From IMG/VR virus record IMGVR_UViG_3300020047_012036, positions 1 through 37,218 of that record: a DNA stretch of 37,218 bases, one strand, 5' to 3'. Positions within the stretch are counted from its first letter, which is position 1, and the number at the start of each line of letters is the position of its first letter. The notes beneath the pieces are model-generated. The model saw only the letters and a program-made list of their open reading frames with translations, was not told the origin of the DNA and searched no databases. A program made the translations under genes and the position numbers. This document shows positions 17,056-17,271 of this stretch, one piece after another. This DNA comes from a virus.

Positions 17056-17271
17056 TTAGCCATCGCCATAGCCAGAGCCAGAGCCAGAGCCAGAGCCAGA
17101 GCCATAGCCAGAGCCATCGCCATCGCCAGAGCCATAGCCAGAGCCATCGCCATCGCCAGAGCCATAGCCATAGCCATCGCCATCGCCATAGCCATAGCCA
17201 TCGCCATCGCCATCGCCATAGCCATAGCCAGAGCCAGAGCCAGAGCCAGAGCCACAATTTACTTCGTCCAT
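17056..17271 (-). CDS. Gly-X dipeptide-repeat peptide, 71 aa: MDEVNC followed by (G-S/Y/D)n.
   Basis: ATG at 17271 preceded by GAGGGGG at 7 nt. Overlaps the upstream gene end by 13 nt, suggesting coupled translation. TAA at 17056-17058. This is the only frame of the repeat that has both a start and an SD. Confidence 0.55.
   Translation of the reverse strand: MDEVNCGSGSGSGSGYGYGDGDGDGYGYGDGDGYGYGSGDGDGSGYGSGDGDGSGYGSGSGSGSGSGYGDG
17059..17253. repeat. Hexanucleotide tandem tract (GCC-A[T/G][A/C])n, about 32 units, including a perfect 30 nt tandem duplication at 17101-17160.
   Basis: Read directly from the sequence. Every second triplet is GCC and the others are only ATA, AGA or ATC. There are no stops in four of the six frames. 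Confidence 0.95.

Follow-up and report, generated by a model that had tools for sequence, protein, structure and literature searches.

A widespread phage gene pair combining a DUF6948 small-barrel protein with a predicted, hypervariable Gly-X repeat peptide

In Hfq of Acinetobacter baumannii, an Sm core is combined with GGFGGQ repeats and an acidic tip, and the repeats and the tip affect RNA binding and autoregulation (PMC11617691). We describe here a two-gene phage module that recalls this design, found in a 37,218-nt stretch of viral DNA (IMG/VR record IMGVR_UViG_3300020047_012036, positions 1 to 37,218; the whole stretch is called the window below). It consists of a gene for a protein of Pfam family DUF6948 and, overlapping its end, an open reading frame (ORF) for a chain of Gly-X dipeptides. 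Hfq and the module share a small barrel, which in the module is a prediction and only weakly Sm-like, together with a long, repetitive, disordered acidic extension rich in Gly and aromatic residues. However, the repeat of the module is a strict dipeptide rather than a hexapeptide, it is usually encoded by a separate overlapping ORF, and it is hypervariable between near-identical genomes; moreover, the DUF6948 barrel lacks an Hfq/LSM sequence signal and its likeness in fold is weak. The comparisons below draw on ∼170 related loci (L numbers) from IMG/VR, GTDB, deposited phages and Logan, and on related proteins (P numbers).

SSB-type proteins join an OB barrel to a Gly-rich disordered linker and an acidic C-terminal tip. 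The module likewise links a small barrel to a variable, Gly-rich, disordered acidic part, it often lies beside genes for SSB, RecT, Erf or RusA (each at no more than 9 of 170 loci), and one fused homologue (P0251) ends in ...SEDDDGF. Yet DUF6948 matches neither an OB fold nor an SSB family, and SSB linkers are neither dipeptide repeats nor separate genes. FUS/hnRNPA-type RNA-binding proteins contain low-complexity domains built from [G/S]Y[G/S]. The likeness to these, compositional only, lies in the nine GYG motifs of the window peptide and in a makeup of Gly, Ser and Tyr (with Asp, Asn or Phe), but the phage peptide has a strict period of 2, no Gln, ∼12% Asp, a net negative charge and a length of 20–130 residues. 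The silk fibroin heavy chain also alternates Gly with a small or aromatic residue and is encoded by repetitive DNA, again a matter of composition and not of homology. Ala, the main X residue of fibroin, accounts for only 29 of 8064 residues in the phage tracts, Asp is abundant, and the chains run to tens of residues, not thousands; the window N-terminus (MDEVNC) has no signal peptide, as a fibroin-type secreted fibre would have.

Staphylococcal Clf/Sdr proteins carry Ser-Asp dipeptide repeats that serve as stalks in large, secreted, cell-wall-anchored adhesins. They share with the module a pure dipeptide repeat arising from a short DNA repeat and a length polymorphism between strains, whereas the Gly-X product would stand alone as a peptide of cytoplasmic type, its partner being a barrel protein. 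The variable regions of diversity-generating retroelements (DGRs) consist of AAY-derived NNY codons, in which no stop can arise. The variable codons of the Gly-X tracts are likewise all NNY and form a hypervariable segment in otherwise identical genomes, but a DGR was rejected because the window holds no second hexanucleotide array that could act as template (by Tandem Repeats Finder, TRF) and no reverse transcriptase match was found among the proteins scanned; the variation is mainly gain or loss of 6-nt units. Three other candidates were also rejected: a collagen-like (Gly-X-Y)n chain, because Gly recurs at every other position and the DNA repeats every 6 nt; the RTX nonapeptide GGxGxDxUx, because the period is 2, with no GG pairs, no aliphatic position and no match to Pfam HemolysinCabind; and a phase-variation contingency locus, because the unit is 6 nt and variants differ by multiples of 6, which keeps the frame.

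We rate the module as not assignable to a known kind, no known family considered, Pfam DUF6948 aside, having passed its test. The initial annotation of the window, made from the sequence alone, had described a low-complexity Gly/Tyr/Ser/Asp product without assigning it to a class, and this caution was justified, as the product fits neither microcins, RTX repeats nor other known families. Literature searches on DUF6948, on phage 'fibroin heavy chain-like' proteins and on Gly-X peptides returned nothing relevant, with no paper in the library searched mentioning the DUF6948 family, and this very widespread two-gene phage module is apparently undescribed.

The Gly-X frame and its DUF6948 partner

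The Gly-X ORF, gene 2 of the module, lies on the minus strand at positions 17056..17271 and encodes 71 aa, namely MDEVNC, 32 dipeptides of GS, GY or GD and a final G, followed by TAA. Its repetitive part is a 195-nt hexanucleotide tract (GGC-NNT)n (17059..17253, minus), which on the plus strand appears as GCC in strict alternation with ATA, AGA or ATC, and in which each residue has a single codon (GGC 33 times, TCT 13, TAT 9 and GAT 10). TRF described positions 17057–17254 as 33 copies of a 6-nt period and also as 6.5 copies of a 30-nt period. An exact 30+30 nt duplication (17101–17130 = 17131–17160), encoding GSGDGDGSGY twice, falls within a longer perfect period-30 stretch (17095..17170, minus; identity at period 30 over 46 positions from 17095). 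The net charge of the predicted peptide is about -12.

The DUF6948 gene, gene 1 of the module (17259..17540, minus; 93 aa, MKYVLV...VPVWTK*), overlaps the Gly-X ORF by 13 nt (17259..17271, minus). Here one frame reads GTA TGG ACG AAG TAA and the other ATG GAC GAA GTA: the Gly-X ATG (17269–17271) is built from the GT-A and TG-G of the Val and Trp codons of DUF6948, the Gly-X frame is -1 relative to DUF6948, and the upstream TAA is at 17259–17261. A Shine-Dalgarno (SD)-like GAGGGGG (17279..17285, minus) sits within the DUF6948 coding sequence, 7 nt before the Gly-X ATG. The initial annotation had already reported the alternating tract, the minus-strand reading up to TAA, the single codon per residue, the perfect tandem duplication and the SD sequence with its 13-nt overlap; all were found as described, and the perfect repetition extends further than it had noted. 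TRF found no other hexanucleotide array in the 37-kb window. An array of this kind is far beyond chance; it occurs once in the window, and its arrangement is repeated in ∼170 independent loci.

Searches of the Gly-X peptide against Pfam, PHROGs, NCBIfam and PADLOC placed it in no family, with one spurious sub-threshold match (a TrAA12 Gly-rich linker, not a family assignment). Promoter and terminator scans gave only background levels, and the sole Rfam match, a sub-threshold match to a miRNA family inside the repeat, was taken as chance.

The DUF6948 protein, which the initial annotation had not identified, matches its Pfam model (PF22253) over positions 1–85 of 85 with E=4.7e-33 and 113.6 bits (cut-off 27). 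Its AF2 model (pLDDT 96) is a five-stranded small beta-barrel with two helices; it lacks the N-terminal helix that precedes the five strongly bent strands of the Sm fold, and a helix is inserted between strands 3 and 4. In a PDB fold search with this model, the top 50 matches were nearly all Sm/LSm proteins, at weak scores (E 3e-3 to 1e-2, TM 0.47–0.62), and a BFVD fold search returned DUF6948 proteins at TM 0.82–0.96 and, after these, phage Sm-like or 'RNA binding' proteins with weak scores. No LSM/Hfq signal was found in DUF6948 by Pfam (E≤0.1) or NCBIfam, and PDB sequence and profile searches yielded nothing, with no Sm protein at E≤10. Going by the model, the protein may be described, weakly, as an Sm-like small barrel in shape but not as a member of the Sm family. 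Its invariant residues include R7, R32, R33, W37 and W91, with W35 and Y36 nearly so, in a motif ARRIWYWSGA. DUF6948 homologues form at least 7998 clusters at 90% identity and at least 2231 at 50%.

Recurrence of the pair and coding of the repeat

A search of IMG/VR with the DUF6948 protein gave 80 loci at 52–86% identity, and inspection of all frames placed a (Gly-X)n ORF directly downstream of DUF6948 in every one (80 of 80). A scan of GTDB genomes added 80 loci, and deposited phage records and Logan contigs a further nine; the tract was present in 81 of these 89, and the other eight have fewer than 65 nt left past DUF6948. By the all-frame inspection, L004, L017, L032, L047 and L079 carry the usual Gly-Tyr/Ser/Asp frame and the standard overlap; at L096 the tract was read by regular expression in a Gly-Thr/Gly-Pro frame. 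A search of related phages for the same cassette, with comparison of repeat number, had been proposed along with the initial annotation, and its outcome is that the cassette recurs and that tract length differs.

The GTDB contigs are labelled Proteobacteria, Firmicutes, Acidobacteria, Planctomycetes, Ignavibacteria, Verrucomicrobia, Cyanobacteria and CPR, with some archaeal bins; DUF6948 is carried on contigs labelled with more than 15 phyla, and its identity is 55–78% across contigs binned to very different phyla. Many of these contigs are 30–40 kb long, and they are probably binned phage contigs. Although megablast of the region against deposited phages gave no match, tblastn found relatives there at 35–75% identity, with the pair in Iodobacter phiPLPE, Pectobacterium Ymer and its relatives, Ralstonia NK-7, Vibrio IKEMa6-1 and Chlorobiaceae CV-1-33. 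All six records of cultured or deposited phages that were inspected have DUF6948 with a Gly-X ORF behind it; the two genes are CDS0033 and CDS0032 in Ymer and XCO36016 and XCO36015 in NK-7, and the DUF6948 gene of phiPLPE is gp84. The annotation of the ORF in these records varies: it is unannotated in phiPLPE (L082, record positions 45993–46265), it is given in a wrong Ala/Met/Leu frame (MAMAMALA...) in CV-1-33 (L085, 2783–3028, gene25), and in NK-7 (L084, 2153–2566, XCO36015.1, record PP919442.1) it is named 'fibroin heavy chain-like protein'.

The converse test, a blind search of IMG/VR for DNA encoding GYGDGSGYG, gave 120 loci, and DUF6948 lies within 900 nt upstream in 85 of them. About 21 others have no upstream sequence, and of the 14 left at least eight have a small DUF6948-like protein. 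Where such a small protein replaces DUF6948 upstream of the Gly-X ORF (L180, L197, L213, L215, L222), it shows a co-linear motif pattern, IVVLDRGWVFVG...VRFWGT..GLGQLA..GP, and hhalign of the IVVLDRGWVFVG-type protein against DUF6948 gave P = 7e-4 and 0.02; it may be a remote DUF6948 homologue, which these alignments suggest.

Several loci have more than one Gly-X ORF. Two stand in tandem behind one DUF6948 gene at L014, L015, L022, L007, L010 and L051; at L014, the duplication that includes the second Gly-X ORF also takes in the 3′ end of DUF6948 (...ESIDEVPVWHQ*) and the ATG embedded there. Tandem arrays of at least three Gly-X mini-ORFs, with no recognisable DUF6948 upstream, occur at L181 (∼1700–2470, plus strand; common flanks MGLKAFLKFG...GEPNLTSAGATVVEE) and at L228 (∼11140–12270; common flanks MRKGALKELAG...DWAKAGAEVLENA).

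Four kinds of evidence, namely codon variation, stop placement, a selected ATG and in-frame fusions, argue that the Gly-X frame is translated. The Gly codon is uniform within a locus and differs between loci (GGC 1623, GGT 295, GGG 203 and GGA 150), and the X codons are all T-ending or all C-ending according to the locus. One codon per locus, differing among loci, points to concerted evolution of the DNA under a conserved amino-acid pattern. A stop directly follows the last unit in 71 of 126 complete tracts, and a stop comes within two codons past the tract for 67% in the Gly-X frame vs 12–14% in the other two frames. The 13-nt overlap is found in 113 of 159 loci, with ATG as the start in 105, and an SD-like 4-mer occurs at -17..-5 in 67% of loci, compared with 17% of control windows. 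Directly ahead of the conserved Trp, Val is encoded by GTA in 67 of 76 cases (elsewhere in the DUF6948 gene in 276 of 1137, or 24%) and Ile by ATA in 26 of 29; this excess reflects selection on the synonymous site for the overlapping start.

In-frame fusions occur in both orders, DUF6948-GX (P0243, which is L046/L048, P0341 and P0381) and GX-DUF6948 (P0286 and P0333), and the Gly-X chain is also fused to an unrelated C-terminal domain of ∼150 aa (L069–L078, P0121–P0240). The proteins with this domain, which contains ...YHHVLTGSCRMGRESFV..., are 183–263 aa long (e.g. L074, 3267–3974), and at L063 the YHHVLTGSCRMGRESFV-containing domain is seemingly a separate ORF. The domain has no match in Pfam, PHROG or PDB, and its AF2 model has a pLDDT of 36.

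Judged on this sequence evidence, the tract does code for a small Gly-X protein, and we consider it very likely that the Gly-X ORF is translated and is an obligate companion of the DUF6948 gene. Translational coupling of the two genes is suggested by their overlap and by the SD-like sequence inside DUF6948. Frameshifting by -1 as a general route to a DUF6948-GX fusion was rejected because a TGA lies four codons before the ATG in the Gly-X frame, and it is also disfavoured because the G-run of the window is not kept in other loci.

Variability, mobility and genomic context

The 132 distinct tracts (8064 residues) are similar in composition, with Gly at 49.5% (sd 2.3), Ser at ∼18%, Tyr at ∼13% and Asp at ∼12%. 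Lys and Arg together account for 22 residues and Ala for 29, although Ala is one mutation away from Ser or Asp, compared with 936 Asp. No tract has a positive net charge, the mean being -7, and correctly framed tracts almost always include Tyr or Phe. The peptide is thus acidic, aromatic-rich, nearly free of Lys and Arg, and certainly of low complexity. The frequent X codons (TCY, TAY, GAY, AAY, TTY, CAY and TGY) are those of Tyr and its single-base neighbours. X residues succeed one another in near-random order (transition ratios 0.83–1.21), and some tracts have only 17–23 residues (L011).

Among genomes whose flanks are identical, the tract is the only part that differs. Thus L074 and L076 share 1908 identical flanking nt, yet their tracts are 204 and 246 nt long, and a clean 108-nt indel separates the tracts of L008 and L009 (69 and 177 nt). 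Where the fused C-terminal domain is 100% identical, the proteins measure 187, 191, 203, 225, 235 and 239 aa, the differences always being even; between genomes with identical flanks, the tract changes in 6-nt steps and the frame is kept. At 163 loci (L001–L080 and L087–L169), the contig ends within 300 nt downstream of DUF6948 in 43 cases and within 300 nt upstream in 8, an excess attributable to short-read assemblies breaking at the repetitive, polymorphic tract. By these comparisons, the repeat turns over fast, with 6-nt units both gained and lost, and each genome homogenises its own copy. The initial annotation had expected tract length to vary between genomes through expansion by slippage or recombination; the variation is seen directly, and the tract-only length differences back such an origin, with turnover itself presumably by slippage or unequal recombination. 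Selection would appear to maintain the composition of the peptide rather than its length or order.

The window is a phage genome or a fragment of one, with genes for a portal protein, a large terminase, an internal virion protein and a RecT-like protein, almost all on the minus strand. Two copies of a 29-nt direct repeat, overlooked in the initial annotation and identical at 28 of 29 positions, bracket precisely the DUF6948 and Gly-X genes. The upstream copy (17550..17578, minus) holds the last seven codons and the stop (RDFMVPE*) of the preceding gene, and the downstream copy (17024..17052, minus) begins 4 nt past the Gly-X stop. Junction duplications of 18 nt at L011 (2909 and 3353) and of 21 nt at L022 (867 and 2016) also lie around the module. 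In these three unrelated loci, the repeats duplicate the interrupted gene junction, including the upstream stop and, in L011 and L022, the downstream start. Most loci have no flanking repeat, the median shared substring being 8 nt, the same as in the control. Within ∼3 kb on either side, no neighbour other than the pair itself is conserved across 170 loci; the commonest neighbours are SSB, RecT, YqaJ exonuclease, RusA, Gp157, Erf and an AAA ATPase, each at no more than nine. The junction duplications and unconserved neighbours indicate, at the level of sequence, that the DUF6948 and Gly-X pair moves as a unit.

Among small unmatched ORFs ∼1 kb upstream of the module lies a gene for a DUF3307 / phrog_2470 membrane protein (18538–18918, minus), whose PHROG category is 'moron, auxiliary metabolic gene and host takeover'. 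The window also carries, on the minus strand, a set of genes of a nonulosonic-acid-type sugar pathway (13426–14337, 30010–31188, 31204–31917 and 32552–33448), whose members are a NeuB-family synthase, a class-III aminotransferase, a CMP-type cytidylyltransferase and a PseB-like Polysacc_synt_2 dehydratase. Genes of this type are unlinked to the module in other loci.

Possible roles of the module

The best overall explanation, to which we give about an even chance, is that the Gly-X chain is translated, is paired with DUF6948 and serves the barrel as a tail or partner. Intrinsically disordered, acidic, aromatic and multivalent, the chain would be detachable from an oligomeric DUF6948 barrel, and during the early replication/recombination phase it would modulate the binding of a nucleic-acid-like ligand by the barrel or drive higher-order assembly. 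Fusions at either end of the barrel suggest a physical linkage of the two parts, and we think it fairly probable that the two products interact physically. The early replication/recombination location and the weak Sm/LSm likeness make a ligand-binding or assembly job the likeliest, although a nucleic-acid or assembly role as such is proposed only tentatively. A further version, which we regard as improbable, is that the module is a mobile two-gene device, present in phages of a great many bacterial lineages, in which a ring-forming barrel is combined with a separately encoded chain whose length and order are reshuffled by slippage, that is, a template-free diversification at the protein level. 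The chain would then tune a multivalent contact with nucleic acid or a host factor, possibly via condensates, in a functional parallel to DGRs or antibody CDRs.

Several observations weigh against the tail-or-partner explanation. A repeat of this type leaves all three forward frames open by construction. The Sm likeness is weak (Foldseek E ∼3e-3, TM 0.5–0.6), with neither an N-terminal helix nor an LSM/Hfq sequence signal. As recombination-type neighbours each occur at so few loci, the genomic context amounts to little beyond 'early region'. Finally, the hypervariability could be neutral, or it could be the product of an arms race, which would favour a decoy or inhibitor.

In that last case, the hypervariable peptide would bind or mimic, say, a nucleic acid or a host substrate and would inhibit a host factor in anti-defence or host takeover, with DUF6948 as adaptor or chaperone and slippage as the source of diversity. 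The extreme variation of length and order between genomes with identical flanks, the placement among small early genes without an assigned role, the behaviour as a mobile cassette with junction duplications and a net charge that is negative throughout are all consistent with such a decoy, and minimalist synthetic antibody libraries achieve binding with just Tyr, Ser, Gly and Asp. However, the conservation of DUF6948 across very different phyla is hard to square with a host-specific target, and with X residues in near-random order no specific epitope is kept; PADLOC gave no match, a weak test because it covers defence rather than anti-defence proteins. We consider a decoy unlikely. A condensate or gel scaffold, in which G-Y-G and G-S-G units serve as stickers and spacers and, together with an RNA-binding Sm-like ring, form a phage ribonucleoprotein or replication compartment, would agree with the GYG motifs of the window peptide, the near-constant presence of Tyr or Phe, the weakly Sm-like predicted fold of the paired protein and the conservation of composition, not sequence. 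We rate it as quite improbable, given that the Asp content and mean charge should counter self-association unless a cationic partner is present and that some tracts are as short as those of L011.

It is very unlikely, in our estimate, that the pair is a selfish cassette that persists by spreading between phages, with a peptide of little or no use to them. Three unrelated loci do have the module flanked by 18–29 nt junction duplications, its neighbours are unconserved and DUF6948 proteins from widely differing phage backgrounds are unusually similar in sequence; but neither product has a nuclease, recombinase or transposase signature, most loci lack flanking repeats, and purifying selection on peptide composition and start codon points to a working product. 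The initial annotation had also raised a role at the level of DNA alone, as a slippage-prone or structure-forming tract, and this suggestion was not supported. A nucleic-acid element of this sort (a binding array for the DUF6948 protein upstream, a G-quadruplex-like (GGNNNN)n or a recombination hotspot, in DNA or RNA), with an incidental ORF, could account for an RNA fold more stable than shuffled controls (z = -4.2), for the breaks in assembly at the tract and for L004, L017 and L032, where GGG for every Gly gives (GGGNNN)n with formal G-quadruplex potential. Most loci, however, use GGC, GGT or GGA, which have no such potential, the centroid RNA structure is unstructured and the Rfam match is a chance one. 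The Gly codons vary by locus, the constants of the DNA being only GG and a third-position pyrimidine while the amino-acid classes are constant; the selected ATG, the SD-like sequence and the stop after the tract all belong to the Gly-X frame alone, and the chain is fused in frame to three different protein partners. We hold this reading to be extremely improbable. Hardly any probability attaches to a secreted or modified peptide, that is, a Gly-rich microcin/bacteriocin or the precursor of a ribosomally synthesized and post-translationally modified peptide, with DUF6948 as its recognition or immunity protein. The product is Gly-rich, a few tracts contain Cys (e.g. L037 and L080) and the small ORF lies beside a small conserved protein, but it has neither a signal nor a double-glycine leader, its 5–8 residue N-terminus is set by the DUF6948 overlap, no maturation, export or immunity genes are conserved within ∼3 kb at the 170 loci, the peptide is fused to cytoplasmic-looking domains, and Pfam, NCBIfam and PHROG gave no match.

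The DUF6948 and Gly-X module ranks among the more widespread uncharacterised phage gene pairs met in this analysis, and its Gly-X half is routinely missed or mis-annotated. The tract is usable as a strain marker and accounts for breaks in phage assemblies at this point. The peptide offers a natural example of a stand-alone, strictly periodic, composition-constrained disordered protein, and the cultured phage-host pairs with the module (Pectobacterium, Ralstonia, Iodobacter and Vibrio) open its function to direct testing. Should the barrel turn out to bind nucleic acids in the manner of Sm or SSB proteins, the module would be a new form of the 'barrel plus disordered regulatory tail', and it would show such a tail encoded by a gene of its own.

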